Positions 1 through 53,406 of a DNA stretch of 64,000 bases are shown one piece after another. The notes beneath the pieces are model-generated. The model had not been told where the DNA came from. It saw only the letters and a program-made list of their open reading frames with translations, and searched no databases. A program made the position numbers and the translations under genes. The stretch's first letter is position 1, and every line of letters starts with the position of its first letter. Source of the DNA: Candidatus Saccharibacteria bacterium RIFCSPHIGHO2_12_FULL_41_12 (GTDB lineage Bacteria > Patescibacteriota > Saccharimonadia > Saccharimonadales > 2-12-FULL-41-12); the NCBI GenBank assembly GCA_001790445.1, contig MGCQ01000001.1:104462-168461 (forward strand). The letters run 5' to 3'.

Positions 1-147
1 CTCACTGATAAAACACAGAGGCGTGAGGTGACTTTATCGGCTGTGCTTGGTCTATCCGTGGCGATCATCGCCCAAGTAGTAGATAAACCTCAGCAACAAG
101 TTAGGAATGATCTTGCAACCCTATCAAAAGAGCTAGGTGGAGCATGA
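1..147 (+). CDS. 3' end of an unidentified CDS (partial, runs off the window start)
   Basis: Frame 1 is open from base 1 to TGA at 145-147 (…LATLSKELGGA*). No recognisable domain. Confidence 0.3.
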   Translation, partial: LTDKTQRREVTLSAVLGLSVAIIAQVVDKPQQQVRNDLATLSKELGGA

Positions 148-164
148 TAGACTAAAATACAAGT

Positions 165-425
165 ATGAAAAGATTCGTCATCGACGTCAGAGAACCTGAA
201 GAATACGCGAAAAAACACGTTAAAGATGCGATCAACATTTCTCCAGAAGACTTTCTAAAGGGCGCGAAACAATTATCTGGAGTGCCCAAAGACACCGAAA
301 TTATTTTGTACTGCATATCGGGCAGTAGGTCTAATGTGGCAATGAATATTTTAAAATCAATGGGATTCACTAACACTGTTAACGGTGTCAACATTCGACA
401 CGTCGAAGCTAAATATACTGACTAA
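165..425 (+). CDS. Single-domain rhodanese-like sulfurtransferase
   Basis: 86 aa. Rhodanese fold signature with an active-site loop (LYCISGSRS). Typical small stand-alone rhodanese length. Confidence 0.75.
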   Translation: MKRFVIDVREPEEYAKKHVKDAINISPEDFLKGAKQLSGVPKDTEIILYCISGSRSNVAMNILKSMGFTNTVNGVNIRHVEAKYTD

Positions 426-457
426 TGGCCTCTTAAGGTTATACATTTTGTAAGAAA

Positions 458-471
458 TTTGTGTACACAAA
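458..471. promoter_or_regulatory. 14-bp perfect palindrome TTTGTGTACACAAA, candidate operator upstream of the 541 CDS
   Basis: Perfect dyad read directly from the sequence. Flanked by TACA/TGTA half-sites (441-480). Confidence 0.3.
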
Positions 472-540
472 TGTAAGTTCCTATACGGCAGTGCCAGGGC
501 ATACAGATATACTTAGTAAGTGAACCTGAGGAGGGTAGCG

Positions 541-1044
541 ATGAACGAAATAGATAATGTTTCAATCAATTCAAATACAAACATAACCGGAGCCAATGCA
601 ATAGAATGGCTACAACCCAAAAAAGTTGAAGACCATTTACTAAAACAAATGATCAGAAGTTCATATGAAATCCTGGCAACAGCAAAGACAGTTTTTCCGT
701 TTACACTTTTCCCTCATACAATTACGCTGGATCGCACAAAAGTTACGATTATAAAAAGAAACTTTATTCTCTCATCTGAAACGGTGAGTTTTCGTATAGA
801 GGATATCCTGAATGTGAGCGTAAATGTCACCCCGTTTTTCGGATCAATCAAAATATTAACCAGGGTGTTCGGCACCGAAAAGCCATACCAAGTTGACCAT
901 TTTAAACGAGGCGAGGCGATACATCTAAAACACATCATCCAAGGCTATCTGATTGCAGCTAGACGGAATATCGACTGTTCAACCCTTGAGCATGGTGAGT
1001 TAATCAACCTGCTTGGACAGCTCGGGCATGACCCAACAGGCTAA
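541..1044 (+). CDS. Hypothetical protein, bacterial PH (bPH_2/YdbT-like) domain suspected
   Basis: The ORF track starts at GTG 520, but ATG 541 follows a GGAGG Shine-Dalgarno 7 nt upstream. The central region resembles the bPH topology (weak, from memory). Confidence 0.45.
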   Translation: MNEIDNVSINSNTNITGANAIEWLQPKKVEDHLLKQMIRSSYEILATAKTVFPFTLFPHTITLDRTKVTIIKRNFILSSETVSFRIEDILNVSVNVTPFFGSIKILTRVFGTEKPYQVDHFKRGEAIHLKHIIQGYLIAARRNIDCSTLEHGELINLLGQLGHDPTG

Positions 1045-1162
1045 AGACAACCACATATTACGATTTATTTGATGTAACGAAAGTAGCTCTTTCTAAATGC
1101 GCTTATGTGATTGGTGCTATAATTACTGCAATGAATAGCGTTAATCGCAATCTGGGTAAACA

Positions 1163-1927
1163 ATGTTAATTAGAGCAGTCAAGACAAGCCCCATCAGAGC
1201 GGGGGAACAATCAATATTTGATGTTCTTGATAAATATCTAGAAAAAGTTGAAGAGAGATCTATAGTTGTCATAACCTCTAAAATTGTCGCTTTACTAGAA
1301 AATAGAGTTGTTCAAATAGACGGAACCGACAAAAAAGCCCTAATCAGAGAAAGTGCAGATCTGTATTATCAACCAGAACCATCTGCCTCTAGTTTGGGCT
1401 ACAACTTTACTATCCTTCAGAATACATTAATCCCGTCGTCGGGTATAGACGCCTCGAACACAGACGGTGTTTATGTGCTTTGGCCTGAGGATTCAATCAA
1501 ATCCGCTAATGAAATCCGTCGATATTTAAAACAGAAGTTCCAACTAAAAGATGTCGGCGTAATTATATCCGATAGCACAATTGGCTTATCTCGGTGGGGG
1601 ACTATCGGCATCTGCATAGGGCACAGCGGGTTCAATCCAGTTAATGATTACGTCGGTATGCCAGATATTTTTGGCAGGAATTTAGAACTAAGTTCAGCTA
1701 ATATGGCCGGCAGTTTGTGCGCAGGAGCAGTAGCAGTCATGGGCGAGGGACCAGAGTGCACACCCGTAGCCATCATTGAAGATCTGCCACAGATAAAATT
1801 TCAGGATCATGACACCACGCCAGAGGAAGCTAAGCAATACTACTTATCCCCGCTTGAGGATTTAATATTCAAAGAATTTTTTACATCGGTAAAGTGGTTA
1901 GACGACGGGAATAAATCTGCAAAATAA
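1163..1927 (+). CDS. CofE-family protein (F420-0:gamma-glutamyl ligase-like)
   Basis: 254 aa. Motifs GIDASN, VGVIISDS and GR.LE…MGEG match the CofE family. Confidence 0.75.
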   Translation: MLIRAVKTSPIRAGEQSIFDVLDKYLEKVEERSIVVITSKIVALLENRVVQIDGTDKKALIRESADLYYQPEPSASSLGYNFTILQNTLIPSSGIDASNTDGVYVLWPEDSIKSANEIRRYLKQKFQLKDVGVIISDSTIGLSRWGTIGICIGHSGFNPVNDYVGMPDIFGRNLELSSANMAGSLCAGAVAVMGEGPECTPVAIIEDLPQIKFQDHDTTPEEAKQYYLSPLEDLIFKEFFTSVKWLDDGNKSAK

Positions 1928-1931
1928 ATAA

Positions 1932-1948
1932 CCCCCAGATTTGGGGGC
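1932..1948. terminator. Bidirectional hairpin terminator between convergent genes
   Basis: CCCCCA-GAT-TTGGGGG stem with A/T-rich runs on both sides. Lies between the 1927 stop (+) and the 1974 stop (-). Confidence 0.6.
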
Positions 1949-1973
1949 TATTATTGATACATCTGATGTAATA

Positions 1974-2231
1974 TTATCGAGGCTGTTGCGGCTTAGCTTC
2001 ACTAATAGTGATCGGACGACCACCTAGTTCTTTACCATTGAGCTCTGCAATAGCTTTGTCTCCAGCAGCATCATCTGCCATCTCAACGAAACCAAAACCT
2101 TTTGATCGACCTGTATCGCGATCTGTGATGATCCTTACGGATACAACTTCGCCAATTTGCGCAAAGAAATCTTTCATTTCGTCCTCTGTTAGTTTATATG
2201 GTAGGCTACCGACAAATAATCTTTTTCCCAT
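1974..2231 (-). CDS. RRM-type RNA-binding protein
   Basis: 85 aa. RNP-2 LFVGSL and RNP-1 KGFGFVEM motifs. Confidence 0.9.
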   Translation of the reverse strand: MGKRLFVGSLPYKLTEDEMKDFFAQIGEVVSVRIITDRDTGRSKGFGFVEMADDAAGDKAIAELNGKELGGRPITISEAKPQQPR

Positions 2232-2409
2232 TATTTTCCTTCTTTAGTTCTCTGGTACCTGCCTATAAAAACAGCCAACTGCTCCCGTCTGAAACTTATT
2301 ATTTTATTGTAAATTTACTTAAATATCACTAGCAGTCATCATTAAGTTAAAGATATTGTAACACAAACTTTTGGTTTACAATACCTCCGAGTTACTGTAA
2401 TGTAGAAGT

Positions 2410-3087
2410 GTGGAAAACAAGGACGTAAAGAAACTGTTCAATTCTAGAACCCACACCTTTCAGAAAGGACAGATGATCTATTTTCTTGGAGAAATACCAA
2501 AAAACAGTTTTTTCATTAATGAGGGGTTTATCAAAGTTTACGCCGTAGGAGAGGACGGGACAGAGCAAATTGTTAGATTCTCTGGCCCGGGGGAGTTCCT
2601 CGCACTGGGTTGGTTATTCGGATACTCACAAGTTATTAGATTTTATTATCAAGCCTTAACTGACTGTTCTTGCGAAGTTATATTCCAAGAAGAATTTAAA
2701 AAACACGAAGAAGATCCCAGCGTGCTCAGATGTATCTTAGATCAACTAAACGTTATCGCAAATCTCGGTCTAATTAGAAATATGGCCCTGCAACAGATCA
2801 AAGCTAGACAAAAAATCATCTATTTTCTGTACTTTTTGTCTCTCAGATATGGCAAGGAGCTCAACAATAACCTCTATGCCATCAAAATCCCGATGACCCA
2901 TCAAACAATCGCCGAAAACCTTGGTTTAACCCGAGAAACAGTTTCGACGGAAATGTCAAAACTTAAAAAAGAATCATTAATAGTCGTTAGACAAAAGAAA
3001 TACATCATTGATAAAAAGGTGGTCGTCAGTATCGTCGGACGAGATATAGCGAACTTTCACAGCTCAGCACAATTCAAAAAGAAGTAA
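2410..3087 (+). CDS. Crp/Fnr-family transcriptional regulator
   Basis: 225 aa, GTG start. N-terminal cNMP-binding-like barrel and a C-terminal HTH (TIAENLGLTRETVSTEMSKLKK). Confidence 0.8.
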   Translation: MENKDVKKLFNSRTHTFQKGQMIYFLGEIPKNSFFINEGFIKVYAVGEDGTEQIVRFSGPGEFLALGWLFGYSQVIRFYYQALTDCSCEVIFQEEFKKHEEDPSVLRCILDQLNVIANLGLIRNMALQQIKARQKIIYFLYFLSLRYGKELNNNLYAIKIPMTHQTIAENLGLTRETVSTEMSKLKKESLIVVRQKKYIIDKKVVVSIVGRDIANFHSSAQFKKK

Positions 3088-3099
3088 AAATCAGCCTGT

Positions 3100-3477
3100 T
3101 CAAATAACTTCTTCAATAATTTTTAACAAGTCCTTAGGGCTGGCCCATGACTTAAGAAAATACTTATCTATTCCTAGCTCATAAGCTTGTTTTACTTCAT
3201 TTTGCAGGTCGTAATTACTAAAAACCACCAGCTTTGCTTGGCGGTTTTTATAACGTTTTTTATATTCTTTCAAAAATTTTATGCCATCCATGTTTGGCAT
3301 TTTCAGATCAAGCAGGATCAAGTCATAGTTTGAATCTTCAACCAGACTAAGTGCTTCAATTCCGTCACTTGCTGGCGTTGTGTCGTAACCTGCGGTATCT
3401 AAAATCATGGTGTACGCTTCATTAAGAGATTTGTCGTCTTCTACAATTAATATATTTGCTAGTGTTGTGTCCGTCAT
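3100..3477 (-). CDS. Stand-alone response-regulator receiver domain protein
   Basis: 125 aa. ILIVEDD…DLILLDLKMPNMDG…K receiver motifs, with no output domain. Confidence 0.85.
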   Translation of the reverse strand: MTDTTLANILIVEDDKSLNEAYTMILDTAGYDTTPASDGIEALSLVEDSNYDLILLDLKMPNMDGIKFLKEYKKRYKNRQAKLVVFSNYDLQNEVKQAYELGIDKYFLKSWASPKDLLKIIEEVI

Positions 3478-21105: not shown

Positions 21106-21180
21106 TCCCGGGTAGCTCAATGGTGGAGCAAGAAGCTGTTAACTTCGAGGTTGTCGGTTCGAATCCGACCCCGGGAGCCA
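21106..21180 (+). tRNA. tRNA-Asn (GTT), CCA encoded
   Basis: 75 nt. Acceptor TCCCGGG/CCCGGGA, D stem GCTC/GAGC, anticodon loop CTGTTAA, T arm GTCGG-TTCGAAT-CCGAC, then G-CCA. Confidence 0.95.
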
Positions 21181-21181
21181 T

Positions 21182-21226
21182 CCTCCGTCGCTATGTTTTG
21201 ACATAGCTATGGGGGATTATTTTTTG
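21182..21226 (+). terminator. Hairpin plus T-run terminator directly after tRNA-Asn
   Basis: Stem GCTATGT/ACATAGC with an outer CCTCC/GGGGG extension, followed by TTATTTTTT. Confidence 0.65.
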
Positions 21227-21268
21227 AGTCGGACTTGAACAAGACAACCCATACAAGCCAGCTTGGAT

Positions 21269-21357
21269 GGTAGTTGTCGGTTCGTTCATAAGAAGCTCTC
21301 GCAGAAGCTTGCTCCGAGAAAGCTTTGCAGTGTGCCAAAGGCAGCCCCACCCCGAGA
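21269..21357 (+). repeat. tRNA-Asn-derived T-arm fragment carrying a ~62-nt insertion (repeat B), a direct repeat of 23890-23975
   Basis: GTTGTCGGTTCG + insert (TTCATAAGAAGCTCTCGCAGAAGCTTGC…GGCAGCC) + CCACCCCGAGA. Roughly 90% identical by eye to the 23868-23980 copy. Confidence 0.8.
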
Positions 21358-21379
21358 ATCAATTCAGATTCAAGATACT

Positions 21380-21417
21380 GTTAGAACCGATTCCCCTCGT
21401 TGGGAGTCGGTTCTAAC
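21380..21417 (+). other. 16-bp perfect-stem hairpin in the leader of the KaiC-like gene
   Basis: GTTAGAACCGATTCCC-CTCGTT-GGGAGTCGGTTCTAAC with one G-U pair. No following T-run. Confidence 0.6.
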
Positions 21418-21541
21418 CATTTCTGGGAACTGTAAAAGGCCCCATTCATTTTTTCTAGTGAACCTACGCATTTGATTGCATTTATCCTCTGAGTTAGCTA
21501 TCATTTAGATACAAACAACTAATGTTTTTTCATCTGGGCGT

Positions 21542-23335
21542 ATGATAGATAATAGCGATGTTCAACCTAACTTAGACAATACGAATGATCAAGAGATATT
21601 TGAATGCGAAAAAAATCAATTGTTAAATGATAGAAATACTTACCCCCCTACTTCTGCTTCAGTAGAGAAGACACTCAACACGGATATACGCCCCACTGGC
21701 ATCCCAGAACTTGATCAAGTTCTTTATGGAGGAATGCCTTCAAACGCAACTGTTATTTTAGCTGGCGGACCTGGCACAGGAAAAACAACACTCGCCTTGC
21801 AATGGCTTGTCGCAGGGTACAAACAGTACAATGAACCCGGTCTATACATCACAGCTACCGAGCCCATCAACAAAGCTTTAAGCAATTTAAAAAAACATGA
21901 GTTTGGCAAAGAATTTGTAATGAACAAAGATACTATAGTTTTTGAAGATCTTCGGACAATTATTAGTAATCTGAATATGAAAGAAGAGAATCTTGTCGAC
22001 GAAAATCTTGATCGGATTATTGACGCAATCTCTGATTTAATTCAGACAAGCGGTGCCAAGCGAGTCGTTATTGATTCTATTACCGCTCTCACATATGGCC
22101 TCCAGGAGAAAAGCCAAGTTCGCAAATTCATTCATCATATGGACGCCCTTATAACGCTTTCTGGCGTAAATATTATTTTAATCTCAGAAGCGTCAGGTGC
22201 TGACCGCTCCGTTTTTGGGGTTGAGGAATTTATAGCTGATGGCATCATCAGATTGACACGAGCCAGGGAGAGCAACGAACTCGTTCATTATCTAGAAATT
22301 ATAAAAATGCGCACGATATCATATAATTCACGACCAATCTCTTATAAAATTACGCCACATGGAATTAAGTTATTTCCTGACACAGAACAAGATTTGACTT
22401 ATCAATCATCATCTAAGCGCATTACTACAGGTATCCCCGGTTTAGACGAAATGACCGGCGGGGGATTTATAGAAGGATCAGCTATACTTGTCACCGGCAC
22501 ATCAGGAGCCGGCAAATCAATCTTGTCCCTACAATTTTTGCAAAATAGATTGCTGGAAAAACAAAATGCGGTTCTCGTTTCCTTTGAAGAATCTAAAGAG
22601 CAAATATACCGAAATGCAAAATCTTTCGGGTGGGATCTCGAATCTTATGAGAAAAATGGTCAGCTCACTGTACTTACAGGATTCCCCGAAAGCAAATATC
22701 CCCAGGAACACATACTAACTATCCAAGAATTGACCGAAAAAACAAATGCCAAGTTTTTAATATTTGATTCTATATCGGCGGTAGAAAGTACATTTTCTTC
22801 TGAAAAAGCACGTGATATGATCACGCATCTCAATGCTTATTTGAAATCTAAAGCCATAACCACCATATATACGAATGCGACACAGACACTTCTTGGCTCA
22901 ACACAAGTAACTGACTCGCGGCTCTCTACGATTACTGACCAAATCATTATGTTACGATACGTTGAAGTGCAGTCGAAATTACGTCATGCGCTCCTCATAC
23001 TTAAAATGCGTGGAAGCAGCCACGATAAAAGTGTGAAAGAGATAGTGTTTGACACAAGTGGTTTAAGAATTACAAATGATTTTTCTGGAATGGAGGGAGT
23101 TCTGACCGGAAGCGCGAAACAAGTTTCCGCATCAACTGAAGAAAAAGTGCATTCTTTATACATGGAGATGCTGGGACCAATGGGAGAAAAACTGTTCAAT
23201 CAAGAGAAAAAAGGCGGTCTATCAGCTACCAAAATACACCTTATGATCCAGGATCTAGCAGATCAGGGAATTCTTGCGAAAGAAAAAAAAGAAGAGTTCT
23301 TTTCTAAAATTAATTCTATTTTTGGCATCAAATAA
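21542..23335 (+). CDS. KaiC-like double RecA-fold ATPase
   Basis: 597 aa. Two tandem KaiC/RadA-like domains with Walker A GGPGTGKT and GTSGAGKS, each preceded by GIP.LD. Has ~55-aa N-terminal and ~80-aa C-terminal extensions. Confidence 0.85.
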   Translation: MIDNSDVQPNLDNTNDQEIFECEKNQLLNDRNTYPPTSASVEKTLNTDIRPTGIPELDQVLYGGMPSNATVILAGGPGTGKTTLALQWLVAGYKQYNEPGLYITATEPINKALSNLKKHEFGKEFVMNKDTIVFEDLRTIISNLNMKEENLVDENLDRIIDAISDLIQTSGAKRVVIDSITALTYGLQEKSQVRKFIHHMDALITLSGVNIILISEASGADRSVFGVEEFIADGIIRLTRARESNELVHYLEIIKMRTISYNSRPISYKITPHGIKLFPDTEQDLTYQSSSKRITTGIPGLDEMTGGGFIEGSAILVTGTSGAGKSILSLQFLQNRLLEKQNAVLVSFEESKEQIYRNAKSFGWDLESYEKNGQLTVLTGFPESKYPQEHILTIQELTEKTNAKFLIFDSISAVESTFSSEKARDMITHLNAYLKSKAITTIYTNATQTLLGSTQVTDSRLSTITDQIIMLRYVEVQSKLRHALLILKMRGSSHDKSVKEIVFDTSGLRITNDFSGMEGVLTGSAKQVSASTEEKVHSLYMEMLGPMGEKLFNQEKKGGLSATKIHLMIQDLADQGILAKEKKEEFFSKINSIFGIK

Positions 23336-23356
23336 TGCTTATGTTAATATAAAAAC

Positions 23357-23854
23357 ATGGACAACACGCCCCTAGACGTTTCTGCTATTATCCTAAATAT
23401 TATTGCTACCATGATCTCTTTCAGTGTGATTGTGCTGATGATCATCCTTATTATGAGAACAAAACTTCTGAGGAGGGGTCTAACGTTTATCAGTGTAGGT
23501 TTTGGAGTTGCAGTATTCTTGCATTTACTAGCTGATTCTTTAGAATTGGCTGGCTATCTGGGCAAGGGCACCCTGATGGATATTATGCCTATATTTATTG
23601 CTGTCGGATCTATCTTAATATTTATTGGGTGTTATAACCTGTTAAAAATTACAAGACCTATCAATAAACTGACAGAAGAAGTACAAAGTATCTCCACTGG
23701 TAAACTGGATATTGAATTGTCTGGAATAGATAGAAAAGACGAGCTCGGAGAGCTAGCGAAAGCTTTTAACCGAATATTAGTAAGTCTCAAACTCGCCATG
23801 AGAGAACAACCAGTCGCAGGATCAGAAATAAGCGAAAAGACCAAAGAAATTTGA
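23357..23854 (+). CDS. Membrane protein with a HAMP domain and no output domain
   Basis: 165 aa. Three TM helices, then HAMP-like ITRPINKLTEEVQSISTGKLDIEL…DELGELAKAFNRILVSL. Confidence 0.75.
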   Translation: MDNTPLDVSAIILNIIATMISFSVIVLMIILIMRTKLLRRGLTFISVGFGVAVFLHLLADSLELAGYLGKGTLMDIMPIFIAVGSILIFIGCYNLLKITRPINKLTEEVQSISTGKLDIELSGIDRKDELGELAKAFNRILVSLKLAMREQPVAGSEISEKTKEI

Positions 23855-23867
23855 AAAGCTAAAAACA

Positions 23868-23980
23868 AGCAAGAAGCTGTTAACTTCGGGGTTGTCGGTT
23901 CGTTCACAAGAAGCTCTCGCAGAAGCTTGCTTCGAGAAAGCTTTGTAGCATACCAAAGGCAGCCCCGACCCCGGGAGCCA
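23868..23980 (+). repeat. Partial tRNA-Asn copy (anticodon arm to CCA) with a 62-nt insertion in the T loop (repeat C)
   Basis: AGCAAGAAGCTGTTAACTTCGGGGTTGTCGGTTCG + 62 nt (23903-23964) + CCGACCCCGGGAGCCA. It lacks the acceptor 5' strand and the D arm. Confidence 0.85.
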
Positions 23981-39875: not shown

Positions 39876-40061
39876 GTGATTAGTTTTGGTGTCTACAGAG
39901 TAGTCAGTGCCAATAACAGTGATCCTGTAACTACAGCCGAGATAGAAGAAGCAGAAATTAATGACGATGACGACGATGGTTACGCAGCCTCCAGCCAAGA
40001 TGAGCCGGACAATAACAAAGTAGACATCAAAGATCAGGAGGCAAAAAATGAAAAACTTTAA
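39876..40061 (+). CDS. Small acidic protein. The reading frame is open upstream to 39780 and encodes a TM helix without a canonical start
   Basis: First canonical start is GTG 39876. The upstream in-frame sequence (…KRKARSILSNSDGIAHLGIVILIVAVLGVISFGVY) looks like the real N-terminal anchor. Confidence 0.35.
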   Translation: MISFGVYRVVSANNSDPVTTAEIEEAEINDDDDDGYAASSQDEPDNNKVDIKDQEAKNEKL

Positions 40062-41289
40062 ACAAAAGTCATCATTTATTATCGTTCCTGTGCTCATGTT
40101 CGTAGCAGTAGGTACACTAGTTTTTTCTGGAGCCGTTTCTGCCCAGACCTCAACGGGTGGTGTGGCAGGACCCATAAAACCAAACTTAACTGATATTAAC
40201 AATTGTAGAACATCACTGTCTGCCTACGATGTTGCGTCCGTCAAGAAATACGGTAAAGAACGAGCAGACAAAAGAGCTAAGACGGTGGCAAAACTCGAAG
40301 CACTTATAAATGAGTCCTCCAGCAAAAGAGATTCTACATTTAACGCCAAGATGAGTTCTATAGAATCAATAATCAATAAATATGGACAAAACTCAAATGC
40401 GCAACTTGATAAATCATTGCCGAGCGGCAAAGCGCAACTAATTTCTGAGGTGAATAACAGCAGAACAATAGTTAGTAGAGGTACTGAAACAATTGGTGCG
40501 ACAGCTACTGCACAAGATGCTGCAAACGCAACCTGCTCGATGATTTATGAAGCTCAAATATACTCAACACTTGTTAACAAAGTCAGAGCACAAATCAAGC
40601 TAGACAATCTGTCAATGCGCAATTCTCTCAATCAAGCCAGACTTGTTGCAACAAACGCCCTCTATGACTCTAACCAGGGGGACAAAGAGATTGGCAATAA
40701 GGTAAAAGCACACAAAGCCACAATCGCAAAACTTTCTAGTCCAAAGGCTAATAGTGCTGGTCTTGAAAGTGCGCAAGCAAAAGTCAATACTGGTCAAGAC
40801 ATAAATAGTGAACTACAAACGCTCACACAGACTATTACGAAAACTCAGGGACCACAAATTGCCTCAGAACTATCACAAGTCAGAAATACAATCAAAAGTG
40901 AGATTACTGCAAAAACAAAGTCTTCAACGAAGAAGTCAAAGACAAAGTCAAAAGGTGGCACTGGCGGATCGGCACCAACAAGTGGTGGATCAACTAAACA
41001 GACCGCCAAAAAGAAAGCTACAATAAAGAAAAAAGCCACAAAAAGAGAACACTCTAGCCATAAGGGGACAGAATGTGCGAAAAGTGGCAGTGGAAACCAG
41101 CACTGTGCGGCATACCAGCCTCAAGGCAAAGGAGAATCAATACTATACGTCAACAAACGACGAGCAGATGCTCAAAGAAAAGCCAACAAGCAAGCAAAAG
41201 CTGAAGACAACGCCAAAAAGCAAGCAAAAGAAAATCAAAAAATTGAAAAAAAAGGAAACAAATTAGTCAAAAAGCTGCGTGGGCTTTAA
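40048..41289 (+). CDS. Secreted Lys/Ser/Thr-rich protein, unknown function
   Basis: 413 aa. Signal peptide …FSGAVSA|QTS, low-complexity helical body and a basic C-terminal third. Confidence 0.6.
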   Translation: MKNFKQKSSFIIVPVLMFVAVGTLVFSGAVSAQTSTGGVAGPIKPNLTDINNCRTSLSAYDVASVKKYGKERADKRAKTVAKLEALINESSSKRDSTFNAKMSSIESIINKYGQNSNAQLDKSLPSGKAQLISEVNNSRTIVSRGTETIGATATAQDAANATCSMIYEAQIYSTLVNKVRAQIKLDNLSMRNSLNQARLVATNALYDSNQGDKEIGNKVKAHKATIAKLSSPKANSAGLESAQAKVNTGQDINSELQTLTQTITKTQGPQIASELSQVRNTIKSEITAKTKSSTKKSKTKSKGGTGGSAPTSGGSTKQTAKKKATIKKKATKREHSSHKGTECAKSGSGNQHCAAYQPQGKGESILYVNKRRADAQRKANKQAKAEDNAKKQAKENQKIEKKGNKLVKKLRGL

Positions 41290-41336
41290 ACTTAGTTAAT
41301 TATCAACTCTGACTTAACTGCTATAATTACTGGGTT

Positions 41337-41426
41337 GGAGAGGTGTCCGAGTGGCTTAAGGAGCACGCTTGGAAAGCGTGTAAAGGGGCAACTCTTTCGC
41401 GGGTTCGAATCCCGCTCTCTCCGCCA
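41337..41426 (+). tRNA. tRNA-Ser (GGA), CCA encoded
   Basis: 90 nt, class II. Acceptor GGAGAGG/TCTCTCC, anticodon stem CACGC/GCGTG with loop TTGGAAA, long variable arm, T arm GCGGG-TTCGAAT-CCCGC. A TATAAT at 41322-27 sits just upstream. Confidence 0.95.
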
Positions 41427-41463
41427 TCCTTCGTCCCTCCGCCTTTTGCGGGGCTACGAAGGA
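41427..41463 (+). terminator. Hairpin directly after tRNA-Ser, with the same flanks as the hairpin after tRNA-Asn
   Basis: TCCTTCG…CGAAGGA outer stem with inner CCGC/GCGG, followed by TTATTGG. Compare TCCTCCGTC…GGGGGATTATTTTTT after tRNA-Asn. Confidence 0.5.
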
Positions 41464-41471
41464 TTATTGGG

Positions 41472-41555
41472 TGCGGGTTCGAACCAAAAGACAAGTTTAC
41501 TCGGGTTCTGAGTGAGTACCGCAGGGAAGAGGCTTCAGCCGATATCCCGCTCTCT
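41472..41555 (+). pseudogene. tRNA-Ser-derived T-arm/acceptor fragment with a ~61-nt insertion in the T loop
   Basis: TGCGGGTTCGAA + 61 nt + TCCCGCTCTCT mirrors the genuine 3' end CGCGGGTTCGAATCCCGCTCTCTCC located 60 nt upstream. Confidence 0.75.
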
Positions 41556-41658
41556 TTCATATAAAAAGTCAGCTTTGGATGACTCAAGTTTATTTTAAGC
41601 TTGCCATTTTGAGACGTGTAGGGGTATGATATGAACATAAATAAGAGGGAGTTATTTT

Positions 41659-53321: not shown

Positions 53322-53406
53322 TGGTGCCGGAGGAGGGACTCGAACCCTCAAGCCTTGCGGCATGCGATTTTGAGTCGCACGCGTATACCAATTCCGCCAC
53401 TCCGGC
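53322..53406 (-). tRNA. tRNA-Leu (CAA), CCA encoded
   Basis: 85 nt on the minus strand. Acceptor GCCGGAG/CTCCGGC, anticodon stem TGCGA/TCGCA with loop CTCAAAA, long variable arm, T arm GAGGG-TTCGAGT-CCCTC, then A-CCA. Confidence 0.95.

Follow-up and report, generated by a model that had tools for sequence, protein, structure and literature searches.

Split tRNA tails behind tRNA genes of Saccharimonadales as probable insertion units at tRNA 3' ends

We identified a conserved layout behind tRNA genes of Saccharimonadales that consists of a hairpin (H) following the encoded CCA, a GC-rich foldable module (X) opened by a short clasp, and a direct repeat of the tRNA 3' end. Within the window (the whole stretch of 64,000 nucleotides that was analysed), the segment at 41427-41555 is, at a probability that we put at roughly 0.6, a gene-less and partly deleted member of a family of insertion units at tRNA 3' ends in Saccharimonadales, in which such segments form the right-hand junctions of integrase-less cassettes. 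This copy is most likely an inert scar, from which the main hairpin of X is gone together with the distal part (half) of the repeat. An earlier reading of the sequence alone had attributed the likeness between the tRNA-Ser and tRNA-Asn loci of the window to a common mechanism rather than random decay. This proposal is strongly supported, as the layout recurs behind seven tRNA identities at eight loci and in tandem arrays.

Table 1. Features of the two window loci and of the recombinase genes compared with them (window positions unless a contig is named).
Feature	Position	Strand	Basis or remarks
tRNA-Asn	21106-21180	+	ARAGORN, Rfam
First Asn unit, gene-less	21181-21361	+	H 21181-21221; T-stem mimic GTCGG 21228-21232; X; decayed repeat 21345-21361
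19-mer GTCGGTTCTAACCATTTCT	21403-21421	+	exact match to the 3' end of the L079 large serine recombinase coding sequence
Second Asn unit, cargo	21542-23854	+	KaiC-like ATPase 21542-23335; small HAMP-domain protein 23357-23854 (Pfam)
Second Asn unit, right end	23869-23980	+	34 nt of tRNA-Asn body, 61-nt X, repeat CCCGACCCCGGGAGCCA
Promoter-like site 5' of tRNA-Ser(GGA)	41300-41327		promoter scan
tRNA-Ser(GGA), intact, CCA encoded, target gene	41337-41426	+	ARAGORN; Rfam tRNA, 52.9 bits
Hairpin H, TCCTTCGTC...CGAAGGATTATT	41427-41468	+	17 bp including A76 of CCA; flanks conserved
5' clasp of Ser unit, TGCGGGTTCGAA	41472-41483	+	11/12 match to 5' half of T arm (tRNA positions 48-59)
Shortened X module of Ser unit, 61 nt	41484-41544	+	motif comparison, folding, model R1 score
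Truncated direct repeat of tRNA-Ser 3' end, TCCCGCTCTCT	41545-41555	+	11 nt, exact, tRNA positions 60-70
Recombinase gene	L079:11177-12811	-	
Recombinase gene	L085/L086/L094/L097:10001-11638	+	

The unit behind tRNA-Ser(GGA) contains a T arm split into two halves. The arrangement GCGGGTTCGAA, 61 nt, TCCCGCTCTCT (41473-41555), on which the sequence-only reading had based its case, occurs once in the window and in none of 100 shuffled sequences, and TCCCGCTCTCT is present at two places only in the window, within tRNA-Ser and at the downstream site. About four bases separate hairpin H from the clasp, and the GCGGG of the clasp is able to pair with the CCCGC at 41546-41550. The repeat lacks the distal acceptor strand and the CCA. 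The X module retains GAACC (41481-41485) with GGTTC (41504-41508), as well as the small hairpin GGC-TTCA-GCC (41531-41540) followed by GATA. The long GCGC..CGAGCA hairpin found in intact copies is missing, and the module scores only 6.4 bits against model R1, so the membership of this copy in the family rests on its position and motifs. Two other assemblies of the same strain that were examined show no difference in this region (six contigs carry the flanking gene).

Several observations concern the surroundings of this locus. A promoter-like site, TTGCCA-18-TATGAT, is located at 41601-41630 between the truncated repeat and ORF 41659, and this ORF therefore need not rely on read-through from the tRNA. 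A distant homologue of ORF 41659 (32% identity, 82 aa) is inverted at the equivalent place in a relative, L090. The ORF just 5' of tRNA-Ser (40048-41289) encodes a lysine-rich protein of 413 aa and low complexity that has no Pfam match and is missing at the syntenic position of L018. The third tRNA in the window is a tRNA-Leu on the minus strand (53322-53406; ARAGORN, Rfam), for which no comparable tail was found.

Hairpin H had been noticed behind the CCA of tRNA-Ser with flanks matching those of the hairpin that follows tRNA-Asn. This correspondence is specific, as the flank pattern TCCTYCGTC-N(15-35)-GGATTATT is found exactly twice in the 64 kb, behind these two tRNAs, where 0 occurrences are expected. 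Across 10 copies from 9 loci the hairpin consists of 17 base pairs starting at A76 of the CCA. The inner stem covaries, with changes on both sides at 7 inner pairs, and the apparent invariance of the outer stem is partly imposed by the search pattern used. Hairpin H is probably a tRNA trailer or terminator-like hairpin borne by the gene-less unit, and the window Ser copy may still serve tRNA-Ser as its trailer hairpin. The stem is strong and the tail reads ATTATT(G/T...), and neither window copy is called by a consensus terminator scan. In L019 (1392-1641) hairpin H lies between tRNA-Ser(GCT) and tRNA-Ser(TGA) with neither X nor repeat, which indicates that H and X are separable and that H can stand alone as a tRNA trailer.

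Two units lie behind tRNA-Asn. The repeat that closes the first, gene-less unit is decayed (12/17 identity). The second unit, 2.6 kb in length, is located 3' of the first and carries two cargo genes. Its right end holds tRNA-Asn sequence from the anticodon arm to the TTCG of the T-loop (33/34 identity), and its repeat matches the tRNA at 16/17 positions, CCA included, with the chromosomal trailer next to it. The Ser and Asn copies share GAAC(C)A(AA)AGACAA past the clasp despite the difference between their tRNAs.

These boundaries alter the description of the Asn tail in the sequence-only reading. It had correctly recognized that fragments of tRNA-Asn are present, but had overlooked the further and better-preserved copy at 23869-23980. 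It had also begun the unit at the second GTCGGTTCG, whereas the true start is the T-stem mimic at 21228 and the true end the decayed repeat. Of the two features proposed to be common to the Ser and Asn inserts, the ...AGCC ending is confirmed, being the 3' strand of the small hairpin just before the repeat, and the CTCG...GAG hairpin is probably not the same helix in both.

We scanned GTDB genomes and JGI metagenomes, once each, for the hairpin-flank pattern, and both scans returned Saccharimonadales loci; L-numbers denote the contigs or loci compared with the window. The complete order of tRNA-CCA, H, clasp with X, and repeat was found in six other Saccharimonadales contigs, behind tRNA-Gln(CTG) (L006), tRNA-Ser (L007), tRNA-Gln(TTG) (L009), tRNA-Arg(CCT) (L012), tRNA-Tyr (L016) and tRNA-Ser(GGA) (L018). 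The inserts at these six loci are 100-135 nt long, and the 3' repeats of 17-23 nt are perfect or nearly so and usually include the CCA. Typically the repeat comprises the last 17 nt of the tRNA (T60 to CCA), extending to 23 nt in L012. L018 has the same ABC-transporter/FtsX neighbours as the window tRNA-Ser, which suggests that the H-X unit at tRNA-Ser may be old. The whole sample of the family amounts to about 13 copies, several of which are related by descent.

A tandem array of such units occupies L017 (positions 1-3187), a 3.2-kb contig that carries no tRNA. It contains five copies of one 17-nt tRNA 3' end, TCCCTCATCCCCAGCCA, spaced 176-806 nt apart, and four of the five are preceded by a full or partial X; three full modules were detected with model R1. 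The ends formed by module and repeat separate single genes in either orientation, encoding a SET-domain protein, a NUDIX protein and two unknown genes, and one unit consists of H and X alone. The contig is almost wholly made up of small cassettes. Two of them start with the same ~15 nt, A[AG]C[GA]TAAGCATTATG, and two cargo units end in a classic terminator hairpin with a T-run, 12-14 nt before X.

Empty sites were found for both window tRNAs. In L081 and L084 a terminator-like hairpin is located directly 3' of tRNA-Asn and the Asn island of the window is absent. For tRNA-Ser the sequence-only reading had asked whether relatives possess an uninterrupted downstream region, and such a region occurs in L090, where unrelated DNA follows the tRNA with no H and no X. 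L090 is a relative with a PyrH that is 80% identical, and its flank downstream of tRNA-Ser is not alignable with the window, so the comparison does not set the exact borders of the unit. Several contigs break at the T-stem of these tRNAs: L002 starts at window position 41398, L078 at 21149, and L090 ends likewise. The assemblies of L097-L100 break ~30-85 nt past a recombinase gene. Breaks at these tRNAs suggest branching assembly graphs, that is, population variants or repeats.

The intact X module begins with a clasp of 7-10 nt, followed by GA-GAACC(C)...(G)GGTTCGG. Next come a long, irregular hairpin bounded by GCGC(A)G...CGAGCA, then a small hairpin, and finally (C)GATA, which runs straight into TCC and the rest of the repeat. 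Over the family X is 60-135 nt long with a GC content of 51-66%. The two T-stem halves are 61 nt apart in the window Ser and second Asn units, and ~100-135 nt apart in the first Asn unit and at the other loci. In intact copies the clasp complements tRNA positions 59-65 instead of copying positions 49-55. It takes the form S5'+ATG, which pairs with TAT+S3 through seven Watson-Crick pairs and one G-T pair. In L016, for example, the clasp is GAGGG where the tRNA has GGGGG, and the L012 clasp, GGATTCG, reads as CGAATCC in reverse complement. The earlier description of a T-arm and acceptor mimic carrying an insertion is therefore apt for the window Ser copy, but does not extend to the family, in which the clasp is a complement and the 3' piece a direct repeat. 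In most copies the sequence starts to match the tRNA at position 59/60, whereas in L012 it does so from 54 and in the second Asn copy from 61. In most copies, including L006, L016, L017, L018 and window 41541-41546, the junction between X and repeat forms the palindrome GATATC (CGAT|ATCC). Centred where identity to the tRNA starts (position 58/59), this palindrome is a possible crossover or recognition site.

The fold of X was assessed in an alignment of four sequences (L018, L009 and two copies from L017) with a 26-pair structure derived from the same four sequences. In this alignment 85.6% of cells are paired, compared with 26-47% when the partners are slid by 1-3 columns. Changes on both sides are seen at 10 of the 26 pairs across the four copies, and none of 500 shuffles attained the observed value. 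The folding z-scores of intact copies range from -1.5 to -4.0. However, the window copies fold no better than shuffled sequence (Ser, +0.25; first Asn, -1.0; second Asn, -0.1) and so look like relics rather than working parts. Model R1, built from four intact copies, recovers three more X copies in L017 and L018. The proposal made from the sequence alone had been staked on further examples and a shared structure; the examples exist elsewhere, and the structure of X beats shuffles in the intact copies, though not in those of the two window inserts.

X does not correspond to any described element that we searched for. Rfam 15, whose families include group I introns, ribozymes and tmRNA, yields no match to X at E <= 10 for the window or at E <= 1 for L006, L007, L009 and L012, and tRNAs are the sole matches in the window and these four loci at gathering and E-value thresholds. 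We considered a hammerhead or other small ribozyme and rejected it, as GGGAUGA..GGCGAA fails the CUGANGA core (by eye) and Rfam is silent. A small ORF was also rejected: L007, L016 and L018 have an open frame whereas L006, L009 and L017 have a closed one, which indicates that X is not coding. Pairwise similarity of X cores was too crude a measure to prove movement of the module between tRNAs. Among viral contigs the hairpin pattern gave 0 hits and the X-motif pattern 57, all of which are chance matches within coding regions, and blastn of the full unit against plasmid and phage collections gave no match. The literature that we searched contains no description of this module. While repeat-bounded islands at tRNA and tmRNA T-loops, including integrase-less ones, are already known as a kind of system, a structured module clasped by the T-stem and gene-less units of 170 nt are not described in Rfam or in the searched literature.

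The direct repeat of the tRNA end is the signature of insertion at a tRNA 3' end. In the explanation that we favour, a unit would begin directly after the CCA of the tRNA, carry one or a few accessory genes or just hairpin H, and close with a GC-rich foldable X of 60-135 nt whose first 7-10 nt are complementary to tRNA positions ~56/59-65. A direct repeat of the last 16-23 nt of the tRNA (position ~59/60 to CCA) would follow. A circular or incoming cassette is envisaged to recombine site-specifically with the T-loop or 3' end of the tRNA gene, which would rebuild the tRNA on the left (attL) and leave its original 3' end displaced to the right, behind X (attR). Later arrivals would displace older units outward and produce tandem arrays. 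As the units encode no recombinase, they would depend on one supplied in trans, for which the leading candidate is a family of Saccharibacteria large serine recombinases found at tRNA-Asn. What the analysis shows is that the layout recurs, with direct repeats, arrays, empty sites and a folding X; how recombination proceeds, where it crosses over, which enzyme acts and what X does are inferred.

A member of this family, 545 aa in length and encoded on the reverse strand, directly adjoins tRNA-Asn in L079, L085, L086 and L094. In L097 the contig ends ~84 nt past the recombinase gene, at the break where tRNA-Asn would be. The reading frame in L079 enters the 3' end of the tRNA, so that its last codons come from the T arm and acceptor strand (...WLPGSDSNRQPRS, then stop). 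The T-arm-like GTCGGTTCTAACC after tRNA-Asn in L079 was considered as a further mimic and rejected, since it is conserved recombinase coding sequence and not matched to the tRNA. The family is very conserved in Saccharibacteria (>1500 homologues, with the top 120 at >=69% identity), and its elements carry defence-like cargo including type I restriction-modification, SNF2/RadC, Schlafen/AlbA and helicases.

The link between this recombinase and X is a 19-mer in the Asn island of the window that is identical to the 3' end of the L079 gene, and which is thus taken as a relic of such an element. It lies 41 nt from the decayed repeat in the window, compared with 47 nt from the CCA in L079. Around it is an 11-nt inverted repeat, GTTAGAACCGA..TCGGTTCTAAC (21380-21421), such that the relic is now a hairpin. 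No recombinase was found in the tested ORFs of the window, in the Asn island, in the Ser unit, in L017 or in the flanks of L006, L007, L009, L012, L016 and L018, nor was any tyrosine recombinase found in the flanks tested. A far end, either X or a second repeat, is likewise absent from the ~10 kb beyond the recombinase in L079, L085, L086-L089 and L094-L096, so the connection to X rests on the one 19-mer. In viral contigs the attL pattern of the recombinase elements and relatives of the recombinase each gave 0 hits. The recombinase is therefore a lead only as the enzyme of the X units.

The closest precedent by analogy is provided by the ssrA islands of Dehalococcoides, which are associated with a large serine recombinase of the DsiB/CcrB-like type. 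These islands insert centrally in the T-loop, occur in tandem with 20-bp repeats, and encode a ~540-aa serine recombinase on the reverse strand next to attL; 15 are without an integration module, and a conserved element motif is located just upstream of each repeat (McMurdie et al. 2011, PMC3146451). The units described here are similarly tandem, lie downstream of a tRNA gene and are bounded by direct repeats of its 3' end. The lack of an integration module is shared with many of the islands, and an element-derived motif is found immediately 5' of each repeat. A reverse-strand recombinase of ~540 aa lies directly next to tRNA-Asn in the four contigs named above, though in no unit that bears X. 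However, here it is ordinary tRNA genes, of at least seven identities, that are targeted; in place of a 15-bp motif there is a module of 60-135 nt that folds and is clasped by a complement of the T-stem; the units shrink to ~170 nt with no gene; and no recombinase is tied to those that bear X.

Stacking at tRNAs is also known from tycheposons (bioRxiv 10.1101/2020.12.28.424599). Like these and other tRNA-anchored elements and CIMEs, the loci show an intact tRNA followed by partial-tRNA repeats, an order in which new arrivals push older ones outward, degenerate remnants, and cargo elements without integrases. In contrast to them, the partial tRNA at attR is not contiguous but split by a structured module, and integrase fragments are limited to one 19-mer. 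Among the features by which elements targeting tRNA or tmRNA genes are recognized, a downstream direct repeat of the 3' end of an intact target and empty sites in relatives are present here, while an element's own integrase beside an att site and a contiguous partial tRNA at attR are not.

The insertion-unit explanation has points against it. No X-bearing unit that can be read has a recombinase gene in it or beside it, and an attR core is normally contiguous, whereas the T-stem halves here are 60-135 nt apart. Sites of serine integrases are ~50 bp and need no such structure. The matching of one X lineage to many different tRNAs lacks an explanation, and a functional RNA would be expected to show just such compensatory changes, richness in GC and G(CUUG)C loops. 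X and the repeat might accordingly be a structured non-coding RNA, a look-alike of a tRNA 3' half with a multi-helix domain in the T-loop, which would be made by read-through from the tRNA or cargo genes and of whose role the DNA repeats would be a consequence. Such an RNA could pair with the 5' acceptor strand of the tRNA, act as a decoy for tRNA-binding enzymes or toxins, or guide insertion. It would account for compensatory base changes in several helices, for the GC content of X, for purine-rich loops and G(CUUG)C tetraloops found on the tRNA-sense strand at the tips of four or five different stems, and for the orientation of X, which stays constant with respect to the tRNA regardless of how the cargo genes are oriented; given the lack of an Rfam match it would be an undescribed RNA. 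However, a strong hairpin (H, or the T-run terminator of L017) is located 5-15 nt upstream of every X and leaves no room for a promoter, and such terminator-like hairpins argue against X being simply part of an upstream transcript. Minimum folding energies show no asymmetry between the strands of X, that of the sense strand being no lower than that of the antisense. The 3' acceptor strand is without a partner, the window copies are degenerate, and the cargo arrays and empty sites require a mechanism at the DNA level in any case. We regard an RNA function as unlikely to be the explanation of the layout.

The remaining two alternatives are much less probable. An older copy of the tRNA gene might have been invaded in its T-loop by a small intron-like mobile insertion, the upstream tRNA being a replacement copy. 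The extra sequence between the T-stem strands does recall T-loop introns (group I introns in tmRNA genes and non-canonical archaeal tRNA introns), and the second Asn copy retains 34 nt of tRNA body 5' of the insert. Group I introns are known in the T-loops of tmRNA and in the anticodon loops of Patescibacteria tRNAs (PMC13011429), which we counted in favour of this possibility. Yet most copies keep just 5-10 nt upstream, and these are the complement of the 3' strand and not tRNA sequence. The interrupted piece is an incomplete gene, X gave no hit to any intron family and is much shorter than a group I intron could be, and the cargo genes between successive copies are left unexplained. To our knowledge the archaeal splicing endonuclease is absent from bacteria. 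We consider an intron improbable and rejected it on the basis of size, the lack of a complete host gene and the silence of Rfam. A chance or local duplication, in which slippage or partial tandem duplication of the tRNA 3' end added filler, is more improbable still. It would fit the Ser clasp, a direct 10/10 copy of the 5' half of the T arm, and the ordinary folding energy of the Ser insert, but not the presence of this architecture and its motifs at six further tRNA genes of other genomes. The hairpin flanks, the GAACC..GGTTC pair, and the small hairpin followed by GATA and then TCC all recur, and the counts expected of the patterns by chance are 0. This recurrence effectively refutes a chance origin of the layout.

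A related possibility, which we hold tentatively and think somewhat unlikely, is an integron-like cassette system that uses ordinary tRNA genes, with X as a folded single-stranded recombination module and cassettes that carry no recombinase. In such a system the helix that closes X would re-form the duplex of tRNA positions 59-65 and the tail would repeat the 3' acceptor strand and CCA, so that one family of modules could be re-aimed at many tRNAs. Cassettes might be captured, for example, from single-stranded DNA imported by these naturally competent bacteria. In a variant, insertion would be guided or regulated by X in the form of an RNA. A role of X as the element-borne half of an att site, used as a folded single strand comparable to attC, would fit the arrays, the lack of a promoter, a middle that varies between conserved ends, and the rebuilding of the duplex of positions 59-65 by the clasp. 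L017 resembles integron cassettes in being an array of small cassettes, mostly with one gene each and no recombinase inside, and X resembles attC in that each cassette has one site-like element, constant in end and orientation and 60-140 nt long, with conserved ends around a variable middle and pairing kept by compensatory change. However, the R''/R' core sites of attC (RYYYAAC / GTTRRRY) are not visible in X, and X is predicted to be multi-branched rather than a single imperfect hairpin. Neither an IntI-type integrase nor attI was seen, the anchor is a tRNA gene, and at least two L017 cassettes end in their own terminator hairpin.

For annotation, insertion units at tRNA 3' ends explain 'tRNA fragments' and contig breaks at these tRNAs. 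If X is a recombination substrate, it would represent a programmable site matched to tRNAs that could be used as a tool, and it would serve as a marker for mobile DNA in genomes of the candidate phyla radiation (CPR). Saccharibacteria have tiny genomes, and their acquisition of genes is little understood. Through these units, tRNA 3' ends stand out as places where small genes of accessory or defence type (KaiC-like/HAMP, NUDIX, SET) are stacked, with restriction-modification and helicase cargo located on the larger recombinase elements.
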